A stretch of 63,734 nt of DNA, filler included, from Psammoneis japonica (Eukaryota): the NCBI GenBank assembly GCA_008632985.1. It is 3 parts of 3 records of this genome, joined end to end, with 100 filler letters (N's around TTAATTAATTAA, not from the genome) between each part and the next. Parts side by side here need not be neighbours in the genome. Positions count along the whole stretch, not along the records: positions 22,468 to 45,046 come from QPGO01000439.1; 2 more parts are not named here. One strand, given 5' to 3'. The notes beneath the pieces were generated by a model, which was given only the letters and a program-made list of their open reading frames with translations, was not told the origin of the DNA and did no database searches. The position numbers were made by a program, and so were the translations under genes. Position 1 is the first letter of the stretch; each line of letters starts with the position of its first letter. Shown here piece by piece: positions 21,598 to 59,500 of the stretch.

Positions 21598-22367
21598 ATG
21601 ATGACAGATGCAACGGAAGAATCTGCTCCAACAAAAGAGGCCAAAGAGCGGCAGCTGCATCCTTTCTTTAGAAACATGGGCACTCAATCCCAGAAATGCA
21701 AAGGCTCCATTAAAACGAGCAAAAGCCAAGCGCACACACGCCAGAAGCGGACGCATCAGAGCAATTTTAGTGGGTGCAAGGTGGCAAGAGTAGACGACGG
21801 AACGAAGAAATGCAAGAGATGTGAGAGAGGTCCTACATGTCATCATGGCCATGATCCCACATGCAAATTTTCAATGAGGTGCTCGCAAGTGAACGTCACC
21901 AAAGCTGCCATGGATGCAGAGCGATGCGATGAAGAGCTGCACGAAACGAACAACACGATTCCGGCTGCCCCAGTTGAGGGAGTTTCGACCATGCGAGACC
22001 ATTTTGGAGCACAGAGACCTGAAGCTCGAGTCACATTGCCTCCTCCAGGTGTTTCCAATGTTTGCAAGCCGGTGAATTCGGGGGTGGCTGGTGCTGCAGG
22101 CCCTGTGGAGCACATGGAGAATGCTTGCAAGGCGGCCGCCATTACAAAATTTTCAGTTGAGACTTTGAAACAAGAGATTCGAGCAAGATTAAAAGAATGC
22201 GAGAACTCCGAGGAGAGGACAAAGTGCCCGGCTGCAGTGAGTGCTCTCATCAGCTGTCTGTTGGACTCTGTCAAGCCCAGATTCGAGCAAGGCAGCAACA
22301 AGTGTCCTGTGGCTGCAGCAAAAAGTGTCAAGCTCAACGAGATGCTGGAGCTTGAGGATGAAACTTT
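21598..22367 (+). pseudogene. Unclassified transposon-like ORF with a Cys/His cluster, truncated by a gap
   Basis: CKRCERGPTCHHGHDPTC. Tyr-free and TA-depleted like the other repeats. Confidence 0.4.
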
Positions 22368-22467
22368 NNNNNNNNNNNNNNNNNNNNNNNNNNNNNNNNN
22401 NNNNNNNNNNNTTAATTAATTAANNNNNNNNNNNNNNNNNNNNNNNNNNNNNNNNNNNNNNNNNNNN
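22368..22467. other. Assembly join: N-run with artificial TTAATTAATTAA six-frame stop linker (22412-22423)
   Basis: Identical linker centred in a 100-base gap, repeated at 45091-45102. Confidence 0.95.
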
Positions 22468-22649
22468 CACTCCCATCACTGCAGACACCCTTGGGAAAAA
22501 GTTGAAAGATGCTGAGACTGTTTGCAGGAGGAGATGCCACTTGCAGGGTTCCCACAGCACAGACACCACTGGGGCAGAGGGAGAGGCCACACCTGAGTGT
22601 GGCCAAGTGTTTGTGGAGTTTTTTTTTGGCACCAAGAGAACCAGTCAAG

Positions 22650-25600
22650 CTTCTCCTCCTCCCATTGTCAATCCACCAACACTGAGACTGCAGGAGCCAA
22701 TGGGATCAGGTGTGTGCATGAGGCAAGCGTTTGCGCATGTCATTTTTTGCAGTTTCTCTCACAACAATCTGTGACCTCTTGCAAGGCTGGAACAAAGCAC
22801 AGTTGGAGCAATGGCTCCTCTTGGCAAGCCTGGACAGGTGCTCTGGTGGGTGACCACTCATGGCACCTCTGCTGGTTCCTTGTTTGCAGCATTGCAGGAC
22901 ATTGGCCATGGCCTTGACCAATGTTTGCCTTTTTTATCCTGCTCAATGGCCACACTGTTCTCACACATCTCTGGCATGTTCCGCATTGGCTCAGCTGCGC
23001 CGGGATGAAATTCCACCCAGTTACACTCAGCAAACTGGCTCTCATTGAAGATTGTTTCAGTGCCATCAAACACTGGTGCAGACCTTGAGTGAGCCTTCAA
23101 GCATGCAAAAACATGGAGCACCTCATCCTGGTGTCCTGCTCTTGGTGCTGCAAGGTGGGATGGCACAAGAGAGATGGCAACAAAGATGTCAATCTATCCC
23201 AGCTCTGCTGCCAGCCACCCAAGCACCCCAATGGGACCTTGCAGCAGCCAGCCATTTTGGCACTCAACTCTGGTGAACTGTCCAGTTCAGGTCTGCATCC
23301 CAAGCTCAAGGGTGTCAACACCTTTGTCAAAAGATGCCTGTCAGTCTTCCCAAGCTCTGGTCCAATGTCTGCCAATGCCCTCTTGACATGCAAGTCAGAA
23401 GACACAGCCCAGTGTGTCTTGCCATCCTCCTCAGACAGCTGATGTTTTCTAATTTGTGCTCCCAGGTGCTCTTCCAGTTTGCAGACACTTCCGTCCTTCC
23501 ACATGTGCCCAGAGCTCATGCAATCCATGAATTTCTTGGGGTCATGTGAGATGCATGACAAATTGTCCATGCATGCAAGCACATGTTCCCAGTGCGTGAA
23601 GCCATCCAGCTCAACTGCAGGTCACATCCAGACATCTGGATCTGCTTTGCATGATTCAAAAACAGCATCATGCAAAGTTGTTGCCATGTGCTCCCAAATC
23701 GTGCACTTGACAATTTAAGACCATACAAGGCATGGACTGCAACAACTTGCCTTCCAACATTGTGCTTGCCAAACTCCAATGTGGCAGCAGCACAGCACTT
23801 CTCCTTGGCACGGGCATCCAGACAGGCATTCTGAACATCTGCGCTCAAGACCTTCAGGTCATTCAGAGCTGCAACAGTGAAAGGCATGCCAACACTGTTG
23901 CATGACACCACACCAGAACAGGTTGACTCTTTTGGTGGATCAGTCTGATGCACCAAGCCTCAAATCTTGCTTTGCATTGGAGAGTGCTCTTGATGTCAAA
24001 GATCACACAACAATCAATGTGTTTTCACCCAACCAGCTCAACTTTGTCATCTTGGAACTCAAATGCAGGCATGATGTTGCAGTTCCTTCTTGATTGCTTT
24101 GAACCAAAAGTCAGTCTCTGTTTTGTTGTCCATCTCTGAGGTTCCTTGACAGATTTGGGCAGCTCAATTCCAAACTTGTTCACACATTTCCAGCAATGTG
24201 ACTTGACCTTCTTCAAAATCCTGGTCCTGCAATGCAAGATGTCTTGGACCCACCAATTAAAAGCTGGTTTGCTGGCTGCTTTGTTTGCTGCAGCATGCTC
24301 AGCAACCTCCACTGGGTCAGATTCCTTCAAATCCTTAAGGGGAACCCACCAGGACATCATCCCATCCTTCCACTTGACCTGTGGACTGGGTCCCACCCTG
24401 CGGTCATCATCCCAGGCACACATCATCCAGACTTGGTTGTCACAAGCCCGTCATCAGCCTTCAATGGCACGAGCATTGCTTGAGTGATCAACTGTCTCCT
24501 TTGTCATCTGATGCAAGTTGCCTTCCAAATCAATCTGTGCAAAGAGGTTCTCCACAATTGCGTTGGCCATGGACCTGTTGGGAAATTCAACATCACAAAT
24601 CCTTGAATCTAAGACTGAGTTGTCATTAATTTCTTGCACCTGTGGGAACACCATTGCCATGATGCTTGTGGGCAATGACCCTGGCATGGGTCAACTCACC
24701 TCCTTGTGGCAGCACAACTTTGGCAGAGCATGGCATTTGTCCAACCCCTCCGGGGCATGCTTGTTGGCTTCTGGGTGAGTTGAGTCTAAATCCATGGGGG
24801 GTCTGCAGCATTGTTCTAATCACCATCAATCAAGTCATCAGGGGTGTCATGGAACTCAGCTTCTGCGAGTCCTCATCCAGGTCACCCAGTTGTTTAAACA
24901 AAGCCTGGTTGACCAATGCCAGGTTCACCTTGATGCAGCTGGGGTTTTAAGGTCATCCTCTGGCATGGCCTGCAGCTCCTTCCGGATGATGGCCTGCCAG
25001 ATTCTGGCAAAATGATGGGTGCCACATTGTTGGTGTAGTTGTTGGTGACTCTGAGCCAGCAACTGATGCACTTCTTTTCTTGTTGTGGAAACTGTGCCAC
25101 AAGCATGCAGTGGCACACAGGTTGACACCAATCAAAGAGGGAGGGAGACAAGACATCAGTTGCAGAACCAAAGATCTCCTCCAACACACATTCTCCCATC
25201 TCTGACACATTGGAGGCTGTTAAGAGCTGGGTGGCACACACCCATTGGGCACAGCAGGTCCAAAATGTTGTTCCAGCGCAGAGTCACATGGACCCATTTC
25301 TTCAACTCATGAATCAATGCTTTGGCGGACACCTCCTGATGCATCCAGCATTCTTTGCAAATCTTTTTCTCTGCCATTTCTGGCATGTTGTCTGACACAA
25401 GGGTTTGTGGGACACCCACGTCATGCATGATTGACGTGACAGCATTGGGTGGTCCCACTGCTTCCTTTTCTGAGGATGGAACATGCCTTGCTCTCTTCGA
25501 CTGGCAAAGACACCACCTCCCATCTTGCCACAGATTGACCCAACCTGTGAGAACATTTGGTCCATCAGAGGCTGCAACATGGTGGTGTTCAATTTTCTTT

Positions 25601-25700
25601 GTGTAATTTGTGCCAATCAATGTCATGCATGTCAATCTTTTGTTTAGAATTTTTGCATGTAAAAGCAATTGACACACTGCCTTTAACAGATGCATTTTAT
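22650..25700 (-). mobile_element. Highly degenerate Ty1/copia retrotransposon pol (diatom CoDi-like)
   Basis: VKWKDG..WVPLKDLKESDPVEVAEHA..PAFNWWV; TDPPKESTCSGVVS..AALNDLKVLSADVQNACL..ALYGLK; RT core read as VLACMDNL (canonical VLVYVDDL). Confidence 0.88.
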
Positions 25701-26339
25701 GTGGACACCTTGCACATGCCCCACCGCAGTGTCTGGCACATCCTCTGCACCCAAGTCACCCCCATGCAAATTTCCTGCCTTGTTTTTCCAGCACCTCCCA
25801 GAATTTCAGTGCATGGCTCTCTGCCCGGCTTTTGGCACTCATTCTACATGAGCAATCATCTGCACATTTCACAACAGTGCATCCTCTCCCCAAACTGCAT
25901 TTGACCTGAGCATGTGCTGTCATGATCCACGTGTGTTCTACGTGAATCACAACTGACCTCTTGCCATGGCGGTCAACAACTTTACCCCGTCCCACAATGA
26001 GGTCGACCCTGATCCTTTCTTCCAATTTCCTGATGAGGTTGATTTTGATGACATGGAATGTTTTGCCAATGGTTTTGGAATGGAGTTGTTTGGTCCCAAG
26101 CTCAAAAGCACAACTGCAATGCGTGCATCCAAAAAGCAGTTTTTGGAGACAATGAAATGGACTCCCTCTCCGCAATTTCTCGCTCTTCCCTTCCTTTGCC
26201 ACAAGCCAAAGTTGTGTCGAATTCCACATGTTGCGGAAGTCATCCACACCAACAACATTGTCAGGAAAACTCTTGGATGCCCTTGCGTTTGGTCTTGCAT
26301 TAAGACTTGTGGTTGGTCCCTCAAGAAATCCTGCACATG

Positions 26340-37500: not shown

Positions 37501-40500
37501 TTGTTGTCAGGAAGATGTCACGCCCCTCCCTCCACTGCCATTGACTGCACCAGATTGTCTTCGAATGACCCTGTTGGTGATCCACTGCTCCCCAAATTGT
37601 CTGGACACACAAGATTGTGTGCGTTCAACACCAATGGCTGTTCATTTGATCACCGTGGTGGCGACATTATAATGATTGTGCACAAGTGGCCACAGAAATT
37701 CAAGCTGATGTCACAGGCATCTCTGAGACATGTTCAGACACTGCACAATTCCAAGTTTGGCACAGCTGCACGGCAGCGGCAACAAGAGGCTTGTGTCATG
37801 GCAGAATCACCTGTTTGTCATCAAAGACTCCCTTCTCCACTCCTTGTGAACCAGGTGGCACCGCTGTCACATCTTGCAACTCTCTGTCCGCGAGGTGTTG
37901 AGCACAATGCAAAGATCCATTGGGTTGCTGGTCCATGCAGATCTTTGATGGAAAGCACGGCCAACAGGTCATGTTTGTTTTGTGTTGCAGAGTGTGTTCT
38001 AACTCGTTGTCCATTGCAGGCAAAACAACTGCATGTGCTCAACAAGTGGCGCTTCTCCATCAACAAGGCCAAGCAAATCCAGATCCCCGGTGAGTGTTCT
38101 GCACCGATCTGACACGCATTCTTGAGCACTTTTGAGATGAGCCAAATCGGGAAGTGATTCTGGCAGGCAATTTTAACACAGACTTCCGTGACGATTCCGA
38201 CACTCTCGCATCTGTGGCCCAACGATTCAACATGTCGGACGCCATGCATCACAAGCATGAAGACCTTGATTTTTCTGCCTGTGTGCAAGGCTCCAGATGT
38301 TTGGATTGTGTGCCAGTGACCCCCGGTGCTTTAGCAGCGGTGCGGCACTGTGGATGTGAACCATTCAGCTGTTGCATGTCTTTGGATCACCGTGCCCATT
38401 TCGTGGATTTTGACACAGTTGCCCTGTTCGGCAGTCCGTCAGTTGATTCATCAAGACCAAAGTTCAGTGATCTCCAAGCATTGTCTCCTAAACATGTCAC
38501 CATGTGTCTTGAAGCAATGGATCCCTTGACCACCAGTAGAAACATTCTGGATCGTGCAACAGCCTTGTTTCAATCTGACACTCCTGACCACAGCCTTGCT
38601 GAGCAACTCAACCGTGACATGACCCAATTCTCCCTGGCAGCAGCCAAGCAATGCAAACGTCACAAAGAGCCAGAATGGTCCATCAAACTCACCGATCTTT
38701 GGAAACAAGTTTTTGCATTGTCCCGAATGATGTCAATGTTCCGCAATCGCAAGGATGTGGTGCCTTTGGTTCTTCAAGAGAAATGTAAAATCTCTTCTTC
38801 CTTTCTCCTTCCCACAACAATCCAAGAATGTTCTGCTGCTTTGCGCTGTGCTAGATCCAAGTGCCGACAGATCGCAGAGAGAGCCAGAAACACCGTGATT
38901 CTGAATGAGACACAAAAATTGCAGAACTGGAGCTAGAAGGTGCCAAAGCGTCAAAAGCTCAGGCCAAAATTCTTTGCAATGTGCGATGTGCAGAAGAGAC
39001 CAAGAGAGTCTTTAGAAAGATTAACGCATGCAAGGCCAAGGAGGACTCCAGTGTTAAGACTGTTCAAGTGCCAGTGAATCCTCATGACAACCCAAAGACT
39101 TGCGAGCATTGGATGACAGTGGAAGCTCCGGACGACGTCGAAGCAGCACTTCAGTCCAGGAATCAACGTCATTTTGGCCAGGCCAAAGGTGCACCGCTGA
39201 CTGTCCCGTCCTTGTCAGTGGACCTGGGGTGCAAAGGTGACACCATTGTGGCAGAACTTGTTTTGGACGGAGAATGTGACACCAGTCAGTTGAACCATGC
39301 GACCTTGTCACTTGTCCAGCATCTTCGTCGTCACACACCTCCAACGGTGAACAATTGTCTCTCATCCACCGCATTGCTGTCTAAATTGAAAACGTGGTCA
39401 GAAGCAACGTCCACCTTGCTGAAATCAGGATCACATCTTGGATGTTGGAAGGCATTGTGTGCACCTCATTCACACTCTAAAGCTCAAGACACTCAAGGCA
39501 ATCCGACCCCGAAGAGATCACTCCTTGACCAGGTTCAGCAAATGTCGCTCATGATTCAACTGCATCTCATTAACTGCACATTGAAATGGGGACATTCACA
39601 TGACCGCTGGAAAGACATCATCAATGTGATGACATTCAAAGAGCCAGGCAACAACAAAATGCACCGCCTGCGCGTGATTCACATCTGCAAAGCAGATTTT
39701 CAAATCATCACGAGCACAAAGTGGCGAGAACTGGCACAACACATGGAGCACCACCGGATGTGTGACCCAGGAATTTATGGCTGCCACTCTTTCCTCTCTG
39801 CCCAGACTCCTGTGTTTCTTGAAAACCTGATGCCAGAAATGTCCCGAGCTTCCAGAAAGATGACACTGACAAGCGACGATGATTTCACCTCATGCTTTGA
39901 CAAGAATGTCCCTGCAATCATTGGACTTTGTTCCCGGAGTGACGGAGTGGATTCACATGTGGTCAAAGTTAAAATAGATGCCTTGCATCACGCCAGACAC
40001 TGGCTGCGCACCTTGCTGGGATTGGCCCAGCGGAGTCATTCCCACACGGACGATTCCCCCCTCTGCGGCACCGGTCAAGGCAGCGGCAATTTTCCGTGGC
40101 ACTGGAACACCCTTTGCAGCCATTTGTTCAACATTTTTGATGCCAAAGCAACAGGAGCATGCTTCAAAACTCCTGATGGCTGATTCTTCATCCACGTGCA
40201 CAATCGAGGATGTGCAGACGACACGTCCAAACAAGTCAATGACTTCCGTGCCAGTCTCCTCAACCTTCAACTCTTGACCTGTTGTTCTCATCACAACAGG
40301 ATGATCAACTCTGGTGTGATTTGCTGGACGCAGTGCAGCACAAACTCGAGTCACCCAAGTGCTTCTTTCTCATGTGGTCGAGTGGGATTTCACCAAGTGC
40401 GGCGAGCCATGCATTCGTCCACATCATGAAGACCTTGACACTGAGATCTTCTCCGCCGACTGGCCCACTTCCCGTTCAAGCACACAACTTGTAGCATGCG

Positions 40501-41217
40501 CACTGTGTCACATGTGCACAAAAGGGCAATTGCACATCCAGCCGTTGTTCACACTGGTGACATGCAAGCATGTGTGCCGCAACACCCCCCTTCAAACTGA
40601 TGTCAGGATCTTCACGAAGCACACTGGTTTGCATCACATTCAGAGGTGGATGTTTTCTAGTTGTCAGTGTCAGGTGTGCATGTTTGTGTGTTTTCATTGT
40701 GCATTACAACTGTCAGTGCAATCGCCGGAGAGGTGTCTCCTGTGCCTGTCGGGATGCTTTTATGTGTATTTTGTTCAATTTGTGAACTTGTTTGTGTTGT
40801 TAGTAAGGCTACTCTGTTAGGCGTCTCGTACCCTGTTGGCTTCTCGTACCCTGGTTGGAAGGCATGTTTTGTACGCTCCTCTTGCGCAGACATTTTCTGC
40901 ATGTTAGTTAGGCTGTTATAGGCGTTTGCCCCCCCTGCGTTACCGTGAACTTTTTGCATGAATCAAGGTGTCGAACCTGCGACCACTGTTCTCTGGAGTC
41001 GCCTCAAATCTGTTGAAAGTCGAAGCTGTCCCGTCGCGCTCGTGCGTGCAGGCGCGGTGCGTCTGGTTCCCACGAACGACTCTGGTGAAATGGACATTTT
41101 CGTAGGCTGCAACACATGTCCGTCGAATACATTTAAATTGCCCTTTTCTTCTATATACACATACAATGACAGATGTTGCACATTAATTTTACGGTCACAA
41201 CTCAACGGACAACCGAC

Positions 41218-41792
41218 TTTCAACAAAAAGTTGTTGAAAGTTAGATCTTTCAACAAAAAAGTTGTTGAAAGTTAGATCTTTCAACAAAAAAGTTGTTGAA
41301 AGTTAGAGCTTTCAACAAAAATCTGTTGAAAGTTAGATCTTTCAACAAAAACCTGTTGAAAGTTAGATCTTTCAACAAAAACCTGTTGAAAGTTAGATCT
41401 TTCAACAAAAACCTGTTGAAAGTTAGATCTTTCAACAAAAACCTGTTGAAAGTTAGATCTTTCAACAAAAACCTGTTGAAAGTTAGATCTTTCAACAAAA
41501 ACCTGTTGAAAGTTAGATCTTTCAACAAAAACCTGTTGAAAGTTAGATCTTTCAACAAAAACCTGTTGAAAGTTAGATCTTTCAACAAAAACCTGTTGAA
41601 AGTTAGATCTTTCAACAAAAACCTGTTGAAAGTTAGATCTTTCAACAAAAACCTGTTGAAAGTTAGATCTTTCAACAAAAACCTGTTGAAAGTTAGATCT
41701 TTCAACAAAAACCTGTTGAAAGTTAGATCTTTCAACAAAAACCTGTTGAAAGTTAGATCTTTCAACAAAAACCTGTTGAAAGCAAGCTTTCA
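41218..41792. repeat. 30-bp tandem array (ttcaacaaaaacctgttgaaagttagatct), about 19 units
   Basis: Most units identical. Each contains the inverted pair TTCAACA/TGTTGAA. Confidence 0.97.
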
Positions 41793-43054
41793 ACAGAATT
41801 CTCTTGAAAGTCGGTATTTTCAACAGCTCTTTCATCCTAAGACGGACAACAAGGTTCACCAGGGTGGTTTTGAGATTGTCTGCTTGGCGGCACATGCTGG
41901 GGACTTTTTTGAGAACAAGTGTGAGGCCCAGGTGGTTTCTGACTCTGACATCCTCATGACGGTGCCGTCCGCACCCCACTCGCACCACCACGAATGCGAG
42001 CGCTTTCACCATAACGCAAAGGTGCTGTGTGATGCATGCCACCAGACGGAAACACCGCACAGCAAGCTGACCACCAAACTCCGTGAAGACGAGAAACACG
42101 GTCGTGGATGCTGACATTTCATCTTGCGATTCCCAGCGCCTCTCAAGCTTACTGGCCGTTACCACTCCAAAGAGGATGGCTGTCTCAAGCCACATTGGGT
42201 GCCAGTGGAGGGTGAACCGTTTGTCCATAAGGAGGAGACACGTGTCAGGGTCACTGACAACATTGTTTTTGGGGTTGCAATCCAGTCGGGTGACACAAAA
42301 GTCAAAGATCGTGACGAGAACAGCTGGAGCCATGCATGCCTTGCCAACACCACCAAGAGCGGCTTGAAGTTGGCCTAGCAGTTCAGTGCTGGTTCAGGTT
42401 TTAGCAGTTTAACAATTTATGGTGCTGGTTTCAAAGTTTGTGGAGGCAGTTTCAGAGTGCACAATGGCAGTTTCAGAACATTCGTCAGCAGCAGTTTCAG
42501 AATTCTTCATTTCTTGAAATTAGTTGTCCCCAGCAGTGGAGCACCTTCGATGGCTCCAAGTGAGCTGCCTTCTGATGCGCCGGTGCACCAATCAAAGCTG
42601 AACCGCGCAGTGAACCACCTTCCAGTTCCGAGTCTGAGTCCCAACATGCTGCATCTTGCGCACCACGTGTGGCACCAACCTGCATCCTTCGTGCACGCTT
42701 TTCCAAATTCGAAATTGCTTCGAGGTTTCAAACAAAACAGAAATCCACAATTCTCAATGACACACAATGGGACCAACCCAGTGGGATGCATTGTGCATTT
42801 TTTCCCAATTGTGAAAAAAGAAACGGGGAATGCGGTTTAAGCGTCATTGAGACATCACGCCGTAAAGTGGGACACCGTCGGCTCGCTTCATTGTGTTGGC
42901 TGCTGCGCAAAGTTCCAAAGTGGGAATTCCACTGCCGATGCTGCAGTGGGGCCCCACTGCAGAGGGCCCCTGTGTCGGCAATGTGTTTCGTGGATGTCTT
43001 AGATGACGTCGCTTGTCCAATCAGATTTTCGTGCCGCCGTTGTGAATTGTTGAT

Positions 43055-43222
43055 TGAAAGTTGTTGAAAGTTACGTCTTTCAACAAAAAGTTGTTGAAAG
43101 TTGCGTCTTTCAACAAAAAGTTGTTGAAAGTTGCGTCTTTCAACAAAAAAGTGTTGAAAGTTAACGACTTTCAACAAAAAGTTGTTGAAAGTTGACGACT
43201 TTCAACAAAAAGTTGTTGAAAG
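43055..43222. repeat. Related 30-bp array, about 5 units, at the other end of the TIR element
   Basis: gttgttgaaagttgcgtctttcaacaaaaa variants. Confidence 0.9.
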
Positions 43223-45046
43223 TTATTTGGCGATAAACGCTGCAATGACTTTCTTGTTATCGAAAACTAAAAAATTGTGTGAGAGAACCCATCCGTTTCT
43301 CGATTGCAATTGTTCATCGCGTGTGTGTGTTGTGGGCAATAGACTGAATTTTGTGCAGTCCAATTCGCTGACTGTGTCGTTGTGCGGACATTGCAAAATG
43401 TCACAAAATTATACAAGAATGAAGCATTTCAATTTGAGTCGTAGTTTCAACAATTTTGAGGCGACTCCCTGGGCTCGGGGCTGTGCCACAGAGGCAAGCG
43501 AATCAATGCTCATAACCTGTCATGTGCACACAAAAGGGCGATTGCACATCCAACCGTTGTTCACACTGGTGACATGCAAGCACATGTGCCACAACACACT
43601 GCACAAAACTCTTGGACACTGCATGGCTCCAATCGGTTCCCAGAAGACCCAATTGAAGAAACTCCAACACAAGAGTGATGCTGCGGCCCTCTTCCTTAGA
43701 TCCTGTCACTTCAATCACATTGAAACATGGAGATGCCACCACGCTTGCTGCCTTTCTTCGATGACTTGCATTTTTCCAAACTCAACCTTCCTTCCCAAAG
43801 AGTTGCTTGCAGTTCAACAGAAAGCCATGGGAATTATTTTTGCCAAATGTGGGTGCAATCAAAGTGCAAAAAGATTCATCTTGTGCGGTCCCCAAGCCCT
43901 GGGAGGCAGAGGTTTTCGATCATTGGATGCAGAGCAAGGCGTTGCTCAACTGCAAATGTCACTGAAGCATTCCAGAGGAGTCACCAAATTAAATCTGGGA
44001 GAGGATCAACCACACAAACTGCTGCACATTGCAGTGTCATGGATCCAACTGAACTCAGAAACGGAGAAAGCTTTCTGTGGGATGCAGGTGCAGAACTCCC
44101 GCATGTGGAATCTTGTTGGTTTGCCTCCGTTCATGTTTTTCTCCACACAGAATTCAAGGAAAAGCACATTTGACTCATTCCGGCATTTTTCCCTTCAACG
44201 TGATGACAATCAGTGCATCATGGACATTGTGCTCCAGTCCCAACTCTTCTCTCACAGAGAAGTCAGATGGATGAATTGCTGTCGACTGCATGTTCAGTGT
44301 TGTCAGTGTCTGACATTGCTCTTGCAGATGGCTTGACATTGGAGGCTACGAAAACAGCAGGAGACCCGTTGCTTCAGAGCAACTCCAGCTCCTTGAACAA
44401 CGTTGAACAGCAAAAACCAGGAACAAGAGCCTGGACCACGTGGCGCAAGTTCTGTGCCTCTCTGTGTCGTTCGGCATCACACACTCTCAAGGAACCTCTT
44501 GGCAATTGGTCAGTGCCTCCATCTCAGATGTGCATGCAAGCCTCAGCACACTTCTCTCCTTCTGAAGAGCAACTGTGTGTTAGATCAACCAACGGATGTC
44601 AAATTTTTCAAGTGAATGGCATGAGGACCAACTCTGTCACAGAGTTGGAGACAGTTCCGGCCCCGTCTGAAGAGTCTTTTCCGGCAGAACTGTCAACAAC
44701 AGAAGATGGTTGATGGGCATTTGCTCCCACACTTCATCATCAGACTTCCTGAGCTCCAGGATCCCAGACATGTTCCAAGACAAACTGCACTTGCTGGGCC
44801 AGTGGAAAGAGAAGTTGTTTGACCAACTGGACTTTCACTCACCACCGCAAATGCCAATCCAATGTTTTGTGTCATCAAAGTTAACAGCTGGCAGTGATGG
44901 ATCCATCAAAGATGGAGCTGCCTTTGGGTAGACAATCACCCTGGACGGTGCACCACTGGTGGATTGTGCAGGACCAGTCTTTGGCAGAAGACCGTCATCA
45001 TGCCGGGCAGAGGCTTGTGGCATTTTGTCCCTCCTTCAATTCATTT

Positions 45047-45146
45047 NNNNNNNNNNNNNNNNNNNNNNNNNNNNNNNNNNNNNNNNNNNNTTAATTAATT
45101 AANNNNNNNNNNNNNNNNNNNNNNNNNNNNNNNNNNNNNNNNNNNN
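45047..45146. other. Assembly join with TTAATTAATTAA linker (45091-45102)
   Basis: Same construct as at 22412. Confidence 0.95.
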
Positions 45147-45816: not shown

Positions 45817-48659
45817 TTAGGAATGAAAGACACGACTTCGCATTTTACCACCTTTACCACCCTTGCTGGATGTAGAAGACGTAGGCTTTGCGATGCTTGA
45901 AGAGAAGCCGGATTTTGCATTTCCTCCCTTGCTCTTGGCGGAGGAATAAGCAGCAGATCCTGAAGACGGTTTTGGTTTTAATCCATTCTTTCCGCCCTTG
46001 CCCTTGGAGGAGGAACCGGAGGATCCCTTCTTTCCTCCCTTACTTTTCGAAGAAGAGCCGGAGGATCCCTTCTTTCCTCCCTTACTTTTCGAAGAGGAGC
46101 TCGAGGATCCCTTCTTTCCTCCCTTACCCTTGGAGGAGGACGATTCCTTCTTTCCGCCCTTGCTCCTGGAGGAGGACGAACCCTTCTTTCCGCCCTTGCT
46201 CTTGGAGGAGGACGAACCTTCTTTCCGCCTTTACTCTTCGAGGAGGACGAACCCTTCTTTCCGCCCTTTGATCTGCCCTTGCTCTTCAAGGAGGATGAAC
46301 TTTTCTTTCCTCCCTTGCTCTTTGAGGATGATCCTCCCTTACTTCCCTTGCCTGGTGGCTTCGGCGAAGGTACAGGCGGCTTTGTAGGCTTAGGTGTCGG
46401 AGCAGGAGTCGGCTCAGGTGATGGTTCAGGCGTCGGCTCAGGTGTCGGAGAAGGAGTGGGCTCAGGTGTCGGAGCTGGTGATGCCGGTGGCTTTGGTGAC
46501 GGAGCTGATCCGCCCTTGCTCTTCGACGATCCGCCCTTGCTTGGAGGTTTAGGTGAAGGTGCAGGCGTTGGGACTGGTGTCGGAGCTGGTGTTGCTGGTG
46601 GCTTCGTCGACGGCGCAGGAGTCGGAGCAGGAGTGGGCTCAGGCGTTGGAGCAGGAGTGGGCTCAGGCGTCGGAGCAGGAGTGGGATTAGGTGTCGGAGC
46701 AGGTGTTGCTGGTGGCTTTGGCGACGGCGCTGGAGGCTTTGGCGAAGGGGACGGAGGCTTCGGAGCTGGTGACGGGGGCTTTGGAGACGGTGACGGGGGC
46801 TTAGGCGTCGAATCAGGTGTTGGCGAAGGCGTTGGAGAAGAAGTAGGAACAGACGTCGGGGCAGATGTTGGCGCAGGCGTGGGGGCTTTTGATGGCTCTG
46901 GTGATGGCTTAATTGTTGGAGCTTGTGTAGCAGGTGGCTTCGGCGAAGGCGACGGGGGCTTTGGAGACGGTGACGGTGGCTTCGGCGAAGGCGACGGCGG
47001 CTTCGGAGACGGTGACGGTGGTTTTGGTGAAGGTGATGGGGGCTTGGGCGGACAAGGACCCGGTGATGGCGGCTTTGGCGAAGGGGACGGGGGCTTTGGC
47101 GACGGTGATGGCGGTCTTGGTGCTTTCGTTGGAGCGTCAGTGGCCGGGGTGGTGGCTCCACAGAAGGTGCCAGAGTTTCCGGAGGCGGTGCAAAGGCGAT
47201 GGAGGTTTCGGCGAGGGCGACGGGGGCTTAGGCGAAGGAGATGGTGGCCTTGGGTACTTTGTTGGAGAAAGAGTTGCCGGAGGAGGTGGTGAAGGTGATG
47301 GAGGTTTTGGCGAAGGAGACGGTGGCATTGGGTACTTTGTTGGAGCATGAGTTGCCGGTGGCTTCGGAGAGGGCGACGGGGGCTTGGGCGAAGGTGACGG
47401 GGGCTTTGGGTACTTTGTTGGAGCCGCAGTTGCAGGAGGTTCTGGTTTTGCAGTGGGAGCTACCGGAGGCTTTGGAGAAGGTGACGGAGGCTTTGGGGAA
47501 GGCTTGGGATATTTTGTTGGCGGAAACGTCGGCGCTTTCGTTGGGGGTTTTGACGGAGAGTAATCGGTTCAGGAGGCGTAGTTGGAGATGCCGTTGGCGA
47601 CACGGTTGGCTCCAGAGTAGGAACAACAGTCGGTACAATGGTAATAACTTTATCTGGTGCCGACGGGGCGGGTGTGGGGGGCGGTGACGGCTGCCTCGTC
47701 GGACTGATTGTAATAACCTGTTCTGGTGCCGACGGCGCAGGAGTCGGAGGTGGGGTAGGTGTTGGCGTCGGAGGCGGCGACGGTTGCCTCGTCGGACTGC
47801 TGGTAATGACCTGATCTGGTGCCGACGGCGCAGGAGTCGGAGGTGGTGTAGGTGTGGGCGTCGGGGGCGGCGACGGTTGCCTCGTCGGACTGCTTGTAAT
47901 AACCTGATCTGGTGCCGACGGCGCAGGAGTCGGAGGTGGAGTAGGTGTTGGCGTCGGAGGCGGCGACGGTTGCCTCGTCGGACTGCTTGTAATAACCTGA
48001 TCTGGTGCCGACGGCGCAGGAGTCGGAGGTGGAGTAGGTGTGGGCGTCGGAGGCGGCACTTGATCGGTTGGTGACACTGTTGGGACTACGGTAATAACTG
48101 GATCTGGCGCCGACGGCGCGGGTGTCGGAGGCGGAGTCGGTGCGGATGTCAGAGGCGGAGTCGGACGGGGAGTAGGAGGCGGCGTCGGACTGGGTGTAGG
48201 AGGCGGCGTCGGATTGGATGTAGGGGATATGGTAATAACTGGATCTGGCGCCGACGGTGCGGGTGTCGGAGGTGGCGTTGGGGACGTAGACGGTGATGGC
48301 GTCTGGACTGTGGGCTCAGGACTCGGCGGTGGTGTTGGCGATGTAGTCGGGCTGAGTGTCGGGGAAGGTGTTGGCACAGGCGTGGGTGAAGGAGTAGGAC
48401 CAGCTGTAGGCGACAGAGTCTTAACCGGTTCAGGCGTAGTTGGAGAGGGAGTTGGCCACCTGAAGACAAGGCCGGGGGATTTCGTCGGCGCACAGGTTGT
48501 GGTGTCAATCAGGAGCTCTCTATCTCCCTTACGGAGATGAAATCCTTTTGGGCTTCTTAGAACCTCAAACGCACGACGAAGGATTTTACTGTAGAAGTGT
48601 TCATATGCTGCCGCCTGCGGTGCTACATAAATTAGGAACAGCACAGTTGCAATCCGCAT
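45817..48659 (-). CDS. Secreted Pro/Thr- and Lys/Ser-rich repetitive protein (silaffin/cell-wall-like), paralogue 1; apparent frameshifts in the repeats
   Basis: Signal peptide [21 protein letters not shown] motif, PTPPPTP and KPPSPSP repeats, [10 protein letters not shown] tail ending [16 protein letters not shown] (TAA 45817-45819). Normal TA content. Confidence 0.78.
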
Positions 48660-49364
48660 CGTTTCTTTCACAAGTTACTATCACAAGGCTCGACGAAGAG
48701 GATCTTATCACGTTGTGCGATTGGGTCACAGAGCTTTTGCGTGGATAGTTTGAGTGTTTGTGATCTTTACCAATCCCGAGATATGGAACGCTGATTTGCG
48801 CCGCCCCATCAGGTTCACGTAGGCGTGAAACGAAGTGAGTTCTTTGGCTGGCAAAAAATGTGAGCGGGTCTTGTTGCCGATTTTCAGATGGCAAAATGTG
48901 GTTTGTGTCGTGGAAAATAAATTTATGTTTGTATTCAGAACTAACGTTCCCAATTTCAGGGTACTGTCAATCCTCTTTTATNNNNNNNNNNNNNNNNNNN
49001 NNNNNNNNNNNNNNNNNNNNNNNNNNNNNNNNNNNNNNNNNNNNNNNNNNNNNNNNNNNNNNNNNNNNNNNNNNNNNNNNNNNNNNNNNNNNNNNNNNNN
49101 NNNNNNNNNNNNNNNNNNNNNNNNNNNNNNNNNNNNNNNNNNNNNNNNNNNNNNNNNNNNNNNNNNNNNNNNNNNNNNNNNNNNNNNNNNNNNNNNNNNN
49201 NATGCCCGTGGGCAACAAAATCCAACGTACGCGCATCGAATCTACCACGGTCAGTACGAGTTGAGCTCAAGAAAAAACTCTGACTCGTTAGATTTCATTG
49301 AAAGACTGAAACGAGATTTTTTTTCAAACAGCATTCGCTACTTGGATTCTCTTGTTCAAATCAT

Positions 49365-52300
49365 TTAGGAATGAAAGACCCGACTTCTCATTTTTCCACC
49401 TTTGCCACCCTTGCTGGATGCCGAAGACGGAGGCTTCGCGATGCTTGAAGAGAAGCTAGATTTTGAATGTCCACCCTTGCTCTTGGCAGATGAATAAGTA
49501 GCAGATCCCGAAGACGGTGTAGGTTTGAATCCCATCTTTCCTTCCTTGTCCTTGGAGGAGGAGCCGTAGGATCCCTTCTTTACTCCCTTGCTCTTGGAAG
49601 AAGAGCCCGAGGATCCCTTCTTTTCTCCCTTACCCTTGGAGGAGGACGATCCCTTCTTTCCGCCCTTGTTCTTGGAGGAGGACGAACCCTTCTTTCCGCC
49701 TTTACTTTTAGAGGAGGACGAACCCTTCTTTCCGCCCTTGCTCTTCGAGGAGGATGAACCTTTCTTTCCTCCCTTGCTCTTTGAGGATGATCCTCCCTTG
49801 CTCCCCTTGCTCGGTGGCTTCGGCGAAGGTGCAGGCGGCTTTGTAGGCTTGGGTGTCGGAGCAGAGTGGGAGCTGGTGTTGGCTCATGGGTCGGAGCAGG
49901 AGTGGGCTCAGGTGTCGGCTCATGCGTCGGAGCAGGAGTGGGCTCAGGTGTTGGCTCAGGCGTCGGAGATGGAGTGGGCTCGGGTGTCGGAGCTGGTGAT
50001 GCCGGCGGCTTTGGTGACGGCGCTGACCCGCCCTTGCTCTTGGAGGACGAGCCACCCTTGCCGCCCTTGCTCTTCGACGATCCACCTTCTTTCCGCCCTT
50101 GCTCTTGGAGGAAGACGAACCCTTCTTTCCGCCCTTGGATCCGCCCTTACTCTTCGAGGAGGATGAACCTTTCTTACCTCCCTTGCTCTTTGAGGATGAT
50201 CCTCCCTTGCTTCCCTTGCTCGGTGGCTTCGGCGAAGGTGCAGGCGGCTTTGTAGGCGTGGGTGTCGGAGCAGGAGTGGGAGCTGGTGTTGGCTCAGGCG
50301 TCGGAGCAGGAGTGGGCTCAGGCGTTGGAGCAGGAGTGGGCTCAGGCGTTGGAGCAGGAGTGGGCTCAGGTGTCGGAGCAGGAGTGGGATTAGGTGTCGG
50401 AGCAGGTGTTGCTGGTGGCTTTGGCGACGGCGCTGGAGGCTTTGGCGAAGGGGACGGAGGCTTAGGCGCTGGTGACGGGGGCTTTGGAGACGGTGACGGG
50501 GGCTTAGGCGTCGGATCAGGTGTTGGCGAATGCGTTGGAGAAGAAGTAGGAACAGACGTCGGTGCAGATGTTGGCGCAGGCGTGGGGGCTTTTGATGGCT
50601 CTGGCGATGGCTTAAGGGTTGGTGCTTGTGTAGCAGGTGGCTTCGGCGAAGGCGACGGGGGCTTTGGAGACGGTGATGGTGGCTTTGGCGAAGTCGACGG
50701 CGGCTTCGGAGACGGCGATGGCGGCTTCGGAGACGGTGATGGCGGCTTCGGAGACGGTGATGGCGGCTTCGGAGATGGCGACGGAGGCTTCGGCGGACAA
50801 GGACCCGGTGATGGCGGCTTTGGCGACGGTGGCGGCGGCTTCGGTGATGGTGACGGTGGCTTTGGCGACGGCTTCGGTGCTTTCGTTGGAGCCTCAGTTG
50901 CCGGAGGTGGTGGCTCCACAGAAGGTGCCGCAGTTGCAGGAGGCGGCGGAGAAGGCGACGGAGGTTTCGGCAAAGGTGACGGGGGCTTTGGCGAAGGTGA
51001 TGGCGGCATTGGGTAAGTTGTTGGAGAAAGAGTTGCCGGAGGCGGTGGAGGTTTCGGCGAAGGTGACGGGGGCTTAGGCGAAGGTGAAGGTGGCATTGGG
51101 GATTGTGTTGGAGAAAGAGTTGCCGGAGGAGGTGGTGAAGGTGGTTGAGGTTTCGGCGAAGGTGACGGTGGCTTGGGCGACGGTGGCATTGGGTACTTTG
51201 TTGGAGCGTGAGTTGCCGGTGGCTTCGGAGAGGGCGACGGGGGCTTGGGCGAAGGTGACGGGGGCTTTGGGTACTGTGTTGGAGTTGCAGTTGCAGGAGG
51301 TTCTGTTTGGCAGTCGGAGCTACCGGAGGCTTCGGAGAAGGTGACGGAGGCTTTGGTGAAGGTGACGGGGGCTTTGGGTACTTCGTTGGAGTCGCAGTTG
51401 CAGGAGGTTCTGGTTTGGCAGTCGGAGCTACCGGAGGCTTCGGAGAAGGTGACGGAGGCTTTGGCGAAGGTGACGGGGGCTTTGGGTACTTCGTTGGAGT
51501 CGCAGTTGCAGGAGGCTCTGGTTTGGCAGTCGGAGCTACCGGAGGCTTCGGAGAAGGTGACGGAGGCTTTGGCGAAGGCTTGGGATATTTTGTTGGCGGA
51601 AACGTCGGCGCTTTCGTTGGGGGTTTCGCCGGGGGAGTAATCGGTTCAGGAGGCTTAGTTGGAGATGCCGTTGGCGAAGGAGGGGTAATTGGCGCGGGTG
51701 GCGTGGTTGGAGATGCCGTTGGCGAAGGAGGAGTGATTGGTGCGGGTGGTGCAGTTGGAGATGCCGTTGGTGAAGGAGGGGTAATTGGTGCAGGTGGCGT
51801 AGTGGGTGGCAGCGTCGGGCGGGGTTGAGGCGGTGGGGTATCGGGTTGATCGGTTGGCGACAAGGTTGGCTCCAGAGTAGGAACAACAGTCGGCACAACG
51901 GTAATAACTGCATCTGGTGCCGACGGAGCGGGTGTCGGTGGCGGCGACGGCTGCCTCGTCGGATTGCTTGTAATGACCTGATCTGGTGCCGACGGCGCAG
52001 GAGTCGGAGGTGGAGTAGGTGTGGGCGTCGGGGGCGGCGACGGTTGCCGCGTCGGACTGCTTGTAATAACCTGATCTGGTGCCGACGGCGCAGGAGTCGG
52101 AGGTGGTGTAGGTGTGGGCGTCGGGGGCGGCNGTTGGAGTGGGTGTAGGAGGCGGCGTCGGAGTGGGTGTAGGGATGGGGTAAGTAACTTGATCTGGCGC
52201 CGACGGTGCGGGCGTCGGAGCGGCACTGGTGGCGGTGTCGGACCCGGTTGTGGTGGTGGGGTTTCGGGTTGATCGGTTGGTGACACGGTCGGCTCCAGAG

Positions 52301-54142
52301 TAGGAACAACAGTCGGCCCTACGGTAATAATTTCATCGGGTGCAGACGGGGCGGGTGTCGGAGGAGGACTGGGAGTAGTAGGCGGCGTCGGACTGGGTGT
52401 AGGAGGCGGTGTCGGACTGGATGTAGGGGATACGGTAATAACTGGATCTGGCGCCGACGGTGCGGGTGTCGGAGGCGGAGTCGGTGCGGATGTCGTGGGC
52501 GGCGTCGGACTGGGAGTAGTAGGCGGCGTCGGACTGGGTGTAGGAGGCGGTGTCGGACTGGATGTAGGGGATACGGTAATAACTGGATCTGGCGCCGACG
52601 GTGCGGGTGTCGGAGGCGGAGTCGGTGCAGATGTCGGAGGCGGCGTCGGACTGGGAGTAGGAGGCGGCGTCGGATTGGATGTAGGGGATACGGTAATAAC
52701 TGGATCTGGCGCCGACGGTCGGGGTCGGAGGTGGCGTTGGGGATGTAGACGGTGTTGGTGTCTGGGCTGTTGGCTCCGGACTCGGCGGTGGCGTTGGTGA
52801 TGTAGTTGGGCTGAGTGTCGGGGAAGGTGTAGGCACCAGGCGTGGGAAACAGGTGATGTCGGAGCTGGCGTTGGGGACGAAGACGGTGGTGGCGTCTGTG
52901 TGTTGGCTCCGGACTTGGAGGTGGCGTCGGCGAAGTAGTTGGGCTGAGTGTCACAATAGGTTCTCCCGCGGTTGGAGTAGGTGTCGGCCCCGGCGTCGGC
53001 GAAGGAGTAGGAACAGGTGTTGGTGGTGGTGTGGCCAACGGGTTTGTGACAAACTCGTATACCGCAGTATCCTCGCAAAGTTCGCCAGTAGGGAGAGGTA
53101 GCGCCTCAGCCACAATTTCCGTCCTATAGGTTGACGCGACGCACACGTCGATGGTTTCCGTGTTGGAAACATTACCTTTCTGCCCTGTCGATAGAGGGTT
53201 GGGAAGAAACTGGCCGACAAGGCTGGTGCTGTTCCCATCCCTAGTTTCGTCCAACGTGACCACTCTGATGGGCGTAGACCCCGTATTCTCGACAAAGTAG
53301 GTAACTGAAATGCTGGTAAGGCAGTCTTTGGATGCGCCTCCAACGTCACAGCCCTTCAGATGTAAACTGGCAAGCTCATCGTTGAGGCGCAGTGGGGCTG
53401 TTCCAGCAGCATTGAATGTAATCGTTTGGCCTCCTACCGTACAATTCATGACTGTGGGGAGTGCAGATGAACCCCGGAGATTTGAAACAGCATTTCCAGG
53501 CATCACACCAGACTCACTCGCAAAGCTATTGCCATTTTCATCAATGCAACTAATGTCCACGTCACTTGAAGGAGTATCGCCAGAGCAAGAAAATTCGCTG
53601 CCCTGGGATTGCTTTGAAGCACTGCAGGCGGTTGGCTGGTACACAAAGGTTAGGTCGGTCACAGGGGCACCGGTGAAGCACTGGCCATCCGGTTGAGCAA
53701 TGTTATCGCAGTCGACCGAGGTATCGTCCGTGAGTGTACAGCTGATGGTAGCCTGAACATGGAACAACGAGAAACATGGATAAGTTAGGGGTGCACGTAG
53801 AACTGTCAATAATCAGCGAGTACTTACTTCAGCAATACATTCAAGTCTTTCGGTTGGACTTGGGGTCGGTGATGGAGTAGGACCAGCTGTTGGCGACAGA
53901 GTCTCAACCGGTTCAGGCGTAGTTGGAGAGGGAGTTGGGAACCTGAAGATAAGGCCGGGAGATTTCGTCGGCGCACAGGTTGTGGTGTCAATCAGGAGCT
54001 CTCTATCTCCCTTACGGAGATGAAATCCTTTTGGGCTTCCCAGAATCTCAGAGGCACGACGAAGGATTTTACTGTAGAAGCGTTCATCTGCAGCCGCGTG
54101 CGGTGCTACAGATATCAGGAGCAGCACAGCTGCAATCCGCAT
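49365..54142 (-). CDS. Paralogue 2 of the same secreted protein, with an extra Cys-rich globular domain and one intron
   Basis: [18 protein letters not shown] and the same N- and C-termini. GT-AG intron 53753-53827 joins ECIAE to ATISCTL in frame. Frameshifts and an n in the repeats suggest sequence error. Confidence 0.78.
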
Positions 54143-56595: not shown

Positions 56596-59500
56596 CACAG
56601 CAGCAGTGACAGACACAGCCATGTGATGAAATAGCGTCAAGGGAAATTGCTTGCTTTCTTTCAAAACAGTGAACTGGGGGGCTCATTGCAAGAGTTGCAC
56701 ATGCAACATGTTTTCAGCTCCTCTCCTGCTCTTGGTTGTTGATCAGCTGTGCTTCTGTGCACATCAAACATCCAAAAAAAAGGCCTGGAGACAAGACTGA
56801 TTTTGTCAAAAATGCAAGGGTTTCTCAAAGGTGTGGACAAGTCTCCATGAACTGCAAAGCCAAAAATTCATGTCCACATGGCTCACCTGTTTGCATGGCT
56901 TCACACCAAAAAAATCAAAAACAAGCAGCTGATCCATCACTCACAATCCAGGCAACATCCTGGGGTGTGCCAACAATTTGATCTTGTTTCAAGTGCATTG
57001 AAGAGCCCTCCATGGTTGCCGCACTTGTTGGTGTTTGCATGTCAAAATTGCACACACCTTTTCCATTGCTTTTGTTTCAAAGTGAGCTCAGTCAGGTCTG
57101 TCAGTGCACAGCCCCAGAAGATTCTCCTAACTCACATCAAGTTGAGCCACTCCATGTTGCTTGGCACAACCAGTTGCTGGATGATCCATTTCCCACACGC
57201 TGACAGATGAAAGGTGCTTTGGTTGTCGAGTGGGGTCAAATCCTTTCAAGTGCACCTGAATGGATCTGCTTGCATTGGGACACATCCTTTCAAGCCACAC
57301 ACAGCCATGTCAAGCACACAAGAGAACCCGCACGTGTTCTGCATGGCTCACAAGAAACACCCAAGTTTTGACTCCACAGCATGCACCGTGAGCCTTTGGA
57401 ACACATCGGATGCAGAAGCAGCCAGTGATGACATGAACTTTTTTAAGCATGCCATGTGTCAAAAGCGGCCATGCCATGCACAAGGTGGATGTTGGCACCA
57501 AGCATTGTGCTGGCACCTTGGTGGACAATGAGACCTGCAAGATGGGCATCTTTTGGACCAGGAAAAGGGGCTTGAGTGGCAAGGTGATGATTTGGCTTTG
57601 CTTCAAGGATGACTCTGCCAATGAAGCCCACTGGAACAATGCCCGCATGGTGTCTCTCACAAGTTTTTTTTCAGTGGGAGCTGTTGTGTGAAGCAACAGC
57701 TGAGTGTGCAGCTGATCTGCACAGCATCATTTGCTGCAGTTTTGCAAGAGTTGCTGCACACAATTTTGCATTTGTCAACACCAGTTTGTGACAAAACATC
57801 TCAGTGTTTAAATTGGGGAGCTCAATTGACAACCAAATCATTTGTGTTGGCCAGCAGAGCAAAGTTGAAAGCACCGCCAGCTGACAGATTGGTGAGCACC
57901 CCTCATTCATGATTGAGCCTGGGGAGGACATTGGTGGAAATGACAGCTTTGGTCAAGCAAAAGCAAGCTGCAACAAACAAGCACCTTTTCCAACCTTTTG
58001 TGACCACATCAAAGACTCGCAAGGTCTGCTGCACAGAGAGCACCGTTGAGGGTGAGAGCAGCCCACATCATTGAGTCATGTGATGGGCCATCCACTGCAT
58101 GTCTCAACTCCAACACAAAGTGCAGCAAACATGGTGGCATTTCAAATGAGTGCCTGCCCTGGATGTCATTGTGTCCAAGTGATGCACTCCAGTCCTGGTG
58201 TGCCAGCATTGTTTGAAATGTGCCAACCAATGTGGTGCATGCAAAAAATCTCTGGCAGCAACAGACAAGGCAGCTTTGCAATGAAGCTCAACTGAGCTTG
58301 GGGTTGTTGTTGCAAGAGAGAAGTGTGGTGTCTGACCGCTGCTCCTCTTGGCGGATGGATGGCGAGCTGCTCCACTGCACACTGGCACAAATGTTTTTGA
58401 TTTGAAAAAAAAGCCCTCAAGGTGCACAGCTGCACTAGCCCAAAATCATGCTTTTTGCCAAAGAAGGTGCTGGCAAATCCATGTGCCACAGCACCAAAGC
58501 TCACACTCACTGAGCATGCTGCATGACTTCATGCAACAAAAAAGCCAAAACAAACAATTGGCTTCTCACCCACAATCTCAGCAAAGCACCCCATGACAAG
58601 CCAATGGTTGGTCTTGCATCATCAAAAAAGGGGCATGAGCAAAAACCATCCAGTCTTTCTTTGGTGCTTGCTTCAAAGTGAGCTCAGCCACCCCTGTCAG
58701 CATGTGGCTGGCCTTGACTCTGGTTGCCCCCTGCACACCAACAACCCAAGCCACTGCACGCCAGTTTCTGGCCCACCCCTTTCCCAGACATTGAAGAGTG
58801 AAGGCTCTCTCTGTCACATCACAGCCTCCTGCTGCAGCCAGGGCATGATGGTCAGTTGCTCTCTTTCTGCCAAAGAAATGGCATGTTTCACATTTCTTGC
58901 ACTCATCAGTGCACGACTTTTGGAGCCACGCCCCCCCCCCCCCCCCCCTGGCAGAAAAGGATGCTTTGCAGCCAATGTGCTGTTTCAAAAATGAGAGACT
59001 TGAGGTTGGAAAGGGAAAAAAGGAAAGGATCAAAATGGCATGCCTGGCAAATGCAACAAATCCACTCTTGATCCTTGAAGACCCCTGGAGCCTGGAGGCA
59101 TTTGCTTTCACCCTGCACACATCACTGCACAGAAAAGGGTGGTGGCTGTGAAAGTGCACAAAAACAAGCCAAAAGAGAGGAGGCTGTGAAACACCAATGC
59201 AAAACAATCATGAAGAAGAAGCTGTGCTTGCAGAGAGCAGCGGCATGCACTGCTCTGCTTGGACATTCTGTTTCTGCATGATTAAAAGTCAACAACAATG
59301 ACTTGTTCCCACTTTTTTGCTTTCTCTTTTTGCTTTTTGTTGTTGGCATTCCACATGCTCAAGAGGCAACAACACTGCTGATGGGACTGCGTATGAGGGG
59401 CCCAGTCGATTGTAAAATCTGGGAGAGCTCGCCGCACAATTGATCCCTGCAATTACAATCGAGTCATGAATGACGACATTATGCACGACCAAAGCACTGA

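Follow-up and report, generated by a model that had tools for sequence, protein, structure and literature searches.

The window analysed here, a stretch of 63,734 nucleotides (filler included) from Psammoneis japonica (assembly GCA_008632985.1), contains a copy of a long interspersed nuclear element (LINE) that has been rewritten by conversion of TpA dinucleotides to TpG or CpA and has lost nearly all of its tyrosine codons. Both the TpA process and the signature that it leaves in the protein are confirmed on this element. The bases GGA TGT GCA GAC GAC ACA (Gly-Cys-Ala-Asp-Asp-Thr) lie at positions 40208 to 40225, as the preliminary description of this DNA had stated, and appear to encode motif C of the LINE reverse transcriptase (RT). 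The account that we favour, and consider probable, is that this is motif C of a dead LINE, that the element and its piece of contig were rewritten by a TpA-directed process, and that the TGT codon most likely derives from TAT.

Amino acid signature of TpA conversion

Seven frame pieces of the element were aligned to a profile of 32 relatives, and the 380 columns with at least 60% agreement were compared; one additional conserved column, in which the copy has a stop, was set aside. All p values are from one-sided Fisher tests of the copy's columns against the relatives' cells, in a comparison whose consensus was drawn from the same 32 relatives that act as the control and that therefore favours the relatives. 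Tyrosine has given way to cysteine or histidine in 15 of 17 conserved columns of the copy, as opposed to 16 of 491 cells in the relatives (p = 1.6e-18); the 17 columns now hold ten cysteines, five histidines, one phenylalanine and a single tyrosine. Changes from leucine to serine or proline (5/59 columns against 13/1673 cells, p = 2.4e-4) and from isoleucine to methionine or threonine (3/12 against 9/344, p = 5.5e-3) are likewise enriched, and valine to alanine stands at 1/5 against 5/143 (p = 0.19). Changes expected from TA dinucleotides that span a codon border are raised as well, with threonine to alanine in 3 of 14 columns, asparagine to aspartate in 2 of 11 and lysine to glutamate in 1 of 10.

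The 121 differences at the 380 conserved columns include 29 that fit conversion of TA to TG or CA and 20 that fit CpG decay, and control rules account for 6 to 11. Among the CpG-type changes are arginine to cysteine, histidine, glutamine or tryptophan (7/26) and aspartate to asparagine (5/26). Over the whole conceptual translation, 1 of 1378 codons specifies tyrosine (0.07%), compared with 3.48% (range 2.36 to 4.85) in the relatives, and cysteine reaches 5.3%, compared with 1.9%. Tyrosine is erased by a TA-directed process because every tyrosine codon begins with TA. The preliminary description had proposed that such a process rewrote the element, and that the four classes of change involving tyrosine, valine, leucine and isoleucine would reveal it; the count against the 32 intact relatives bears out the rewriting, with enrichment of three of these classes, tyrosine among them.

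The element and its motif C

Between 38909 and 40429, the frame that carries the motif is interrupted only by a TGA at 40181 to 40183 (plus strand), nine codons upstream of motif C. In a full HMMER search, its 507 residues matched 2382 relatives at E <= 0.001, the best at 1e-106 with 43% identity. Full-length relatives are 1900 to 2000 residues long, and tblastn with P0002, P0003, P0006 and P0011 gave traces that span 37555 to 40431, break off, and restart at 43530 to 45045, with the open frame that holds the motif aligning to the RT portion of full-length relatives. The 5' part of the LINE, supported by tblastn and by its TA count, thus occupies 37555 to 40431 on the plus strand, and within it tblastn places an endonuclease region at about 37686 to 38885 and an RT region at 38876 to 40246. 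The 3' part occupies 43530 to 45046 on the same strand, changes frame near 44297 and 44750, and ends where the contig ends, at 45046.

When the copy is aligned with the 32 relatives, its Gly-Cys-Ala-Asp-Asp falls on Gly-Phe-Val-Asp-Asp, and both aspartates are invariant. The endonuclease family Exo_endo_phos exceeds its Pfam cut-off of 24.5 bits in relatives P0003 (27.7) and P0006 (47.7). A family profile compared with solved structures found the endonuclease/exonuclease/phosphatase (EEP) enzyme 3teb at 4.8e-05, its credible matches being EEP endonucleases only; the RT profile found nothing credible among solved structures, and no sequence match to solved RTs. P0005, an intact relative of 592 residues, was modelled from a 25-row alignment (mean pLDDT 83.7), and Foldseek matched the model to human LINE-1 ORF2p (E 1.4e-13) and, next, to R2 enzymes (about 2e-11). 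In the model, the strand Val-Gly-Phe-Val, the Asp-Asp turn and the next strand form a beta-hairpin, as expected for motif C. On the strength of the alignments and of this model, positions 40208 to 40225 on the plus strand are assigned to motif C, the catalytic hairpin of a LINE RT, and the element is classed as a dead non-long terminal repeat (non-LTR) retrotransposon of the apurinic/apyrimidinic endonuclease (APE) type, predicted to encode an endonuclease followed by an RT.

A word-based protein search with the 507-residue frame returned three matches at 35 to 38% identity, and the same kind of search with a 148-residue piece holding the motif returned ten candidates, none of which was scored. 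Comparison of the region from 37 to 45 kb with the window by blastn revealed no further copy of the LINE. The full-length relative P0020 (2116 amino acids) was recorded in the transcriptome of a marine protist, which shows transcription of at least some family members.

Sister copies and the alanine codon

Sister copies were represented by one sequencing run from the same organism, which contains 90% of the sampled words of the stretch. At 80% likeness, 191 contigs were placed and 375 variable places were found, of which the 40 best supported are listed; two other runs, X2 and X3, contributed no contig that was placed on the stretch. Among the 40 places listed, the window reads TG or CA at six that are TA in sister contigs, and the reverse is found at none. 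Five places have CG in the window and TG or CA in the others, and 20 show other changes.

One of the six TA places is 40215, the middle base of the GCA alanine codon of motif C (40214 to 40216), where seven sister contigs read T (depth 348 of 851) and the codon becomes GTA. The 104 relatives that cover the motif have valine at this place in 97 cases, and otherwise isoleucine (three), alanine (two), phenylalanine (one) or leucine (one). The valine codons at metagenome loci are GTC (25), GTT (24), GTG (14) and GTA (9). By comparison with relatives and sister contigs, GCA can be taken as shown to be a GTA codon converted by TA to CA. The support for conversion comes from these relatives and sister copies, because the ability of the two codons to be converted back is weak evidence by itself: every cysteine codon converts back to a tyrosine codon in this way, and GCA is a frequent alanine codon in CA-rich DNA. 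The arithmetic of the preliminary description is nonetheless correct, in that TAT to TGT is a change of TA to TG and GTA to GCA is a change of TA to CA.

A separate site, at 39443 to 39445, reads TGT in the window, where the relatives have histidine, and CGT (six) or TAT (four) in sister contigs. CpG-type and TA-type changes are therefore both seen at a single site among the copies.

The precursor of the cysteine codon

The cysteine codon of motif C (TGT, 40211 to 40213, plus strand) occupies a place that is aromatic in all 104 relatives that cover it, with phenylalanine in 99, tyrosine in five and cysteine in none. The motif is also visible at 75 of 80 metagenome loci, where the codon is TTC (39), TTT (34) or TAT (two) and never specifies cysteine; these loci partly overlap the protein relatives (L065 is the same as P0050), so the two counts are dependent. 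Tyrosine has five independent origins at this column of the tree; in the 25-row neighbourhood of the copy, where 21 rows have data, it occurs in three. Phenylalanine is otherwise stable in the copy, which keeps it at 13 of 14 conserved columns, the change to cysteine in the motif being the only exception. In the same columns of the relatives, cysteine occupies 1 of 385 cells and tyrosine 33 of 385.

If plain frequencies (5/104, or 3/21 in the tree neighbourhood) are taken as the prior for tyrosine, the route through tyrosine scores 0.05 to 0.14 x 0.59, and the direct route from phenylalanine to cysteine about 0.9 x 0.01 to 0.03. These odds correspond to roughly 0.5 to 0.9 for a tyrosine precursor. 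Our estimate was lowered to somewhat below the middle of that range because position 40212 shows no alternative letter among the places listed. TGT is thus probably a converted TAT that arose from a tyrosine variant of the motif.

Besides the shared origin of consensus and control, several points weigh against this account. Judged by its relatives, the family motif is FVDD, and YVDD is not the family state; on the tree, the weakly supported neighbours of the copy are P0002, P0152 and P0067, all of which have phenylalanine. No alternative letter occurs at 40212 among the 40 places listed of 375, and most sister copies may likewise read G there, in which case the cysteine would predate the decay or be native to the subfamily. 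CpG decay also yields TG and CA: at nine of the 40 listed places, the window reads TG or CA and the sister contigs CG. The relatives are metagenome proteins at most 43% identical to the copy. The Pfam family RVT_1 reaches 19.5 and 22.6 bits in relatives, under its cut-off of 29.6, and a Pfam search with nine window frames of the region, the motif frame included, gave no RT or endonuclease match. The preliminary description had read the motif as YVDD turned into CADD. The step from valine to alanine stands, with valine in 97 of 104 relatives and T at 40215 in seven contigs, and tyrosine as the family state does not, given phenylalanine in 99 of 104; the intact relatives thus differ from the proposed ancestor, but none of the 104 has the cysteine of the copy.

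The alternative that survives best, although we consider it unlikely, is that the precursor was FVDD, so that valine to alanine would be the sole TA conversion and phenylalanine to cysteine an unrelated T to G transversion. Such a precursor agrees with the predominance of phenylalanine, which is found in all three members of the nearest group with data as well as in 99 of 104 relatives, and with TTC or TTT at 73 of 75 metagenome loci, and differences that are neither TA-type nor CpG-type are numerous in the copy (72/121). However, the consensus residue has T as its middle codon base in 92 conserved columns (59 leucine, 14 phenylalanine, 12 isoleucine, five valine and two methionine), and only one other clean T to G change is seen there, from leucine to tryptophan; G in the window is set against T in the others at 7 of the 375 variable places. 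By comparison, tyrosine became cysteine in 10 of 17 columns of the same copy.

It is improbable, to a greater degree, that cysteine was native to the subfamily of this genome or was fixed early in it, with a master element that read CVDD and a copy in which only valine to alanine occurred. The sister contigs are the reason to consider this: seven have T at 40215, yet none of the 40 listed places of 375, which reach down to a depth of 124.6, shows an alternative at 40211 to 40213. Against it, cysteine is absent from the motif place in all 104 relatives and all 75 loci, the match of several contigs starts at 40206, near the site, and conversion may have reached the sister contigs as well.

Extent and timing of TA depletion

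For the whole window, the ratio of observed to expected TA, rho(TA), is 0.247, with rho(CA/TG) at 1.437 and rho(CG) at 0.69. The contig piece that holds the LINE (22468 to 45046) is depleted over its entire length, with 228 TA dinucleotides against 1417 expected (rho 0.16) and values of 1.68 for TG, 1.65 for CA and 0.54 for CG. Within it, the 5' part of the LINE has 19 TA against 185.5 expected (rho 0.10) and the 3' part 7 against 101. Counted per kilobase, TA-poor tracts lie at 1 to 17 kb, 22 to 45 kb and 55 to 59 kb, with rho(TA) of 0.0 to 0.2 and TG and CA at 1.5 to 1.9, and the remaining tracts are at about 0.5 to 0.7. Genes outside the TA-poor tracts are spared: a UPF0014 and ABC transporter gene, an aldo/keto reductase gene and a gene for a DUF7467 protein are all in tracts with rho(TA) of 0.5 to 0.7 or higher. 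The 80 metagenome relatives range from 0.45 to 0.88, and none is TA-depleted.

Two identical N44-TTAATTAATTAA-N44 blocks, at 22368 to 22467 and 45047 to 45146, are contig-joining linkers, which show that at least three contigs were joined to make the window. The abrupt change from TA-poor to TA-normal DNA at 45 kb is a join and no biological border. From 22001 to 26000 and from 57001 to 59000, CpG is nearly gone too (rho(CG) 0.10 to 0.25, with TA at 0.02 to 0.15), and in the TA-poor DNA at 4 to 6 kb and 16 to 17 kb it stays near 1.0. Because CpG is kept in some TA-poor tracts, TA loss and CpG decay are only loosely coupled. The region from 46001 to 53000 is GC-rich (0.58 to 0.65), has a strong excess of G over C (skew of +0.3 to +0.4), and carries very long open frames on its minus strand, of up to 1049 residues without a Pfam match; the region also holds one DUF7467 match.

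Both strands of the element are affected, as seen in ten changes from tyrosine to cysteine beside five to histidine, and in 278 TG against 321 CA. The depletion extends into the flanks and, less strongly, into a 2.9-kb insertion that splits the LINE (40586 to 43520; 68 TA against 230 expected, rho 0.30). The insertion is flanked by a direct repeat of LINE sequence on the plus strand, with a left copy of 75 bases at 40511 to 40585 and a right copy at 43521 to 43597 that is 91% identical to it. One dinucleotide is TG in one repeat copy and CA in the other, and at two places CG stands against CA, which indicates that TA conversion and CpG decay both continued after the insertion. Target duplications do not usually reach the 75 to 77 bases of this repeat. 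The insertion also contains arrays of a 30-base unit at 41212 to 41832 (about 20 copies, 85 to 95% identity) and at 43057 to 43225 (about five copies), which partly match their own reverse complement (68%) and keep TA above their surroundings (rho about 0.3).

The involvement of both strands and of the flanks, together with the changes made after the insertion, argues against editing of the LINE RNA before integration. RNA adenosine deaminases prefer an A with a 5' U, and ADAR1 is said to restrict LINE-1, so that A to G changes made by an ADAR-like enzyme before reverse transcription, rather than on DNA after insertion, might be considered. This explanation is nevertheless very hard to sustain: T to C changes on the sense strand are frequent too (five from tyrosine to histidine, four from leucine to serine or proline, one from valine to alanine), TA depletion is also present in the flanks and in the insertion that came later, and the repeat copies indicate conversion after insertion. 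Ordinary neutral decay or a natively low TA content, with no special process, would be in line with the mild under-representation of TpA in most genomes and the values of 0.45 to 0.88 in the 80 metagenome relatives, but is scarcely credible for an element whose rho of 0.10 lies well under all of these, which has one tyrosine in 1378 codons and so marked an excess of changes to cysteine or histidine, and whose sister contigs retain TA at TG and CA places of the window.

Stop codons and the death of the copy

When every codon is taken with every possible neighbouring base, conversion of TA to TG or CA makes no stop from any sense codon, and turns TAA and TAG into glutamine, tryptophan or TGA. 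A rule of the type of repeat-induced point mutation (RIP) does create stops, from CAA, CAG and TGG, and CpG decay creates them from CGA. This agrees with the earlier proposal that the process, unlike RIP, inactivates elements without making stops. The idea that TA-depleted DNA would have much longer open frames was rejected, the mean being 33.7 residues compared with 30.3; stops fall only from 32.0 to 28.5 per 1000 triplets. The gain in frame length is small because a rise in TGA accompanies the fall in TAA and TAG.

CpG decay is the source of the stops found in the copy. The in-frame TGA at 37899 to 37901 (plus strand) is CGA in four sister contigs, so this stop arose by CpG decay, and the TA process was not its source.

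The preliminary description had also regarded the motif as disabled by conversion, and this is not borne out. The catalytic aspartate codons GAC GAC are intact and beyond the reach of the TA process because they contain no TA, and alanine at the third motif place occurs in 2 of 104 relatives; FADD, with alanine at the same place, is the motif of LINE-1. The aromatic residue of motif C is phenylalanine or tyrosine throughout the relatives, and its replacement by cysteine, with both aspartates kept, would be the only plausible defect in the motif. Many lesions together account for the death of the copy: loss of 15 of 17 conserved tyrosines, at least four frameshifts (tblastn places frame changes near 38880, 40250, 40370, 44297 and 44750), six in-frame stops (five TGA and one TAG), and the 2.9-kb insertion.

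Proposed history and comparison with known systems

In the history that we propose, a LINE would have inserted, and later a process that acts on both DNA strands and converts TpA to TpG or CpA (A:T to G:C at TpA) would have altered it along with the entire 22.6-kb piece of contig, beside ordinary CpG decay. The effect of this process on the protein would be to remove tyrosine and to alter NTA codons (isoleucine to methionine or threonine, leucine to serine or proline, valine to alanine), with no stops created. In motif C, GTA became GCA, and TAT, from a tyrosine variant recurrent in the family, would have become TGT. The enzyme responsible might act by adenine deamination in DNA, which is the published proposal for a like signature in Bigelowiella natans. 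A dedicated TpA-specific DNA editor at work in this alga could kill retrotransposons purely by missense, erasing every tyrosine, including that of the RT hairpin in tyrosine-type copies, without stops; this is a tentative idea, and we think it somewhat doubtful.

A preprint on B. natans (Mettrop et al., bioRxiv 10.64898/2026.01.13.699255) reports in its main text that silent viral DNA integrated in the genome mutates only at TpA, to TpG or CpA. The long-term signature that it describes is TpA loss with gain of CpA and TpG in clustered regions. The Pfam families 'Reverse transcriptase' and 'Endonuclease-reverse transcriptase' are over-represented among its low-TpA coding sequences, and the enzyme proposed there is an ADAT2-like adenine deaminase (bioRxiv 10.64898/2026.01.13.699255). 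The P. japonica element resembles what that text reports in the clustered TpA depletion coupled to gain of CpA and TpG, and in A:T to G:C change at TpA on either strand, and the sparing of genes outside the TA-poor tracts likewise agrees with that kind of hypermutation. In B. natans, the preprint describes a live process, followed in mutation-accumulation lines and acting on giant-virus and virophage inserts, with a main region at rho(TpA) 0.45; P. japonica differs in showing a fossil signature in a LINE, at rho 0.10 and alongside CpG decay. Tyrosine, stop codons and diatoms go unmentioned in the main text of the preprint, which brings up RIP for comparison (bioRxiv 10.64898/2026.01.13.699255), and a literature search, in which papers were judged partly by title and the opening of the abstract, found the TpA signature only for B. 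natans and no description for diatoms or LINEs. We regard the P. japonica element as an instance of the recently reported TpA hypermutation; the erasure of tyrosine is a useful consequence of it and no new system in itself.

The effect on the protein, in which tyrosine falls from about 3.5% to 0.07% and cysteine rises about threefold with no stops produced, has practical consequences. Pfam fails on such copies because of the tyrosine-erasing conversion, and reading frames that lack tyrosine offer a cheap, alignment-free screen for hypermutated elements. If the proposal is true, dead elements would persist as tyrosine-free frames rich in cysteine and histidine, which would serve as a protein-level marker of defence across eukaryotes. 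The many intact relatives also make the family suitable for a bench comparison of phenylalanine, tyrosine or cysteine in motif C.

With LINE-1 ORF2p and R2, the predicted element shares the order of endonuclease then RT, the fold match of the P0005 model and, in its relatives, the aromatic-x-Asp-Asp hairpin of motif C. It differs from them in that the family is very divergent in sequence, with RVT_1 below the Pfam cut-off. In animals, clustered transitions in copies of LTR elements are reportedly ascribed to base deamination by APOBEC enzymes. Animal deaminase editing acts on single-stranded cDNA or RNA and leaves a one-strand pattern within the element, whereas the changes in P. japonica occur on both strands and reach into the flanks and a later insertion.

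RIP, known from Neurospora and other ascomycetes, is similar in that transitions at one dinucleotide run through whole regions and ruin mobile or repeated DNA while genes are spared. It differs in direction and outcome: RIP turns CpA into TpA and makes stops from CAA, CAG and TGG, whereas here TpA becomes CpA or TpG, and TAA and TAG are removed. RIP itself was rejected as the process at work, the direction being opposite (TA lost, CA and TG gained) and no stop being able to arise. If TpA-directed A:T to G:C editing is a genome defence, it would be the mirror image of fungal RIP.

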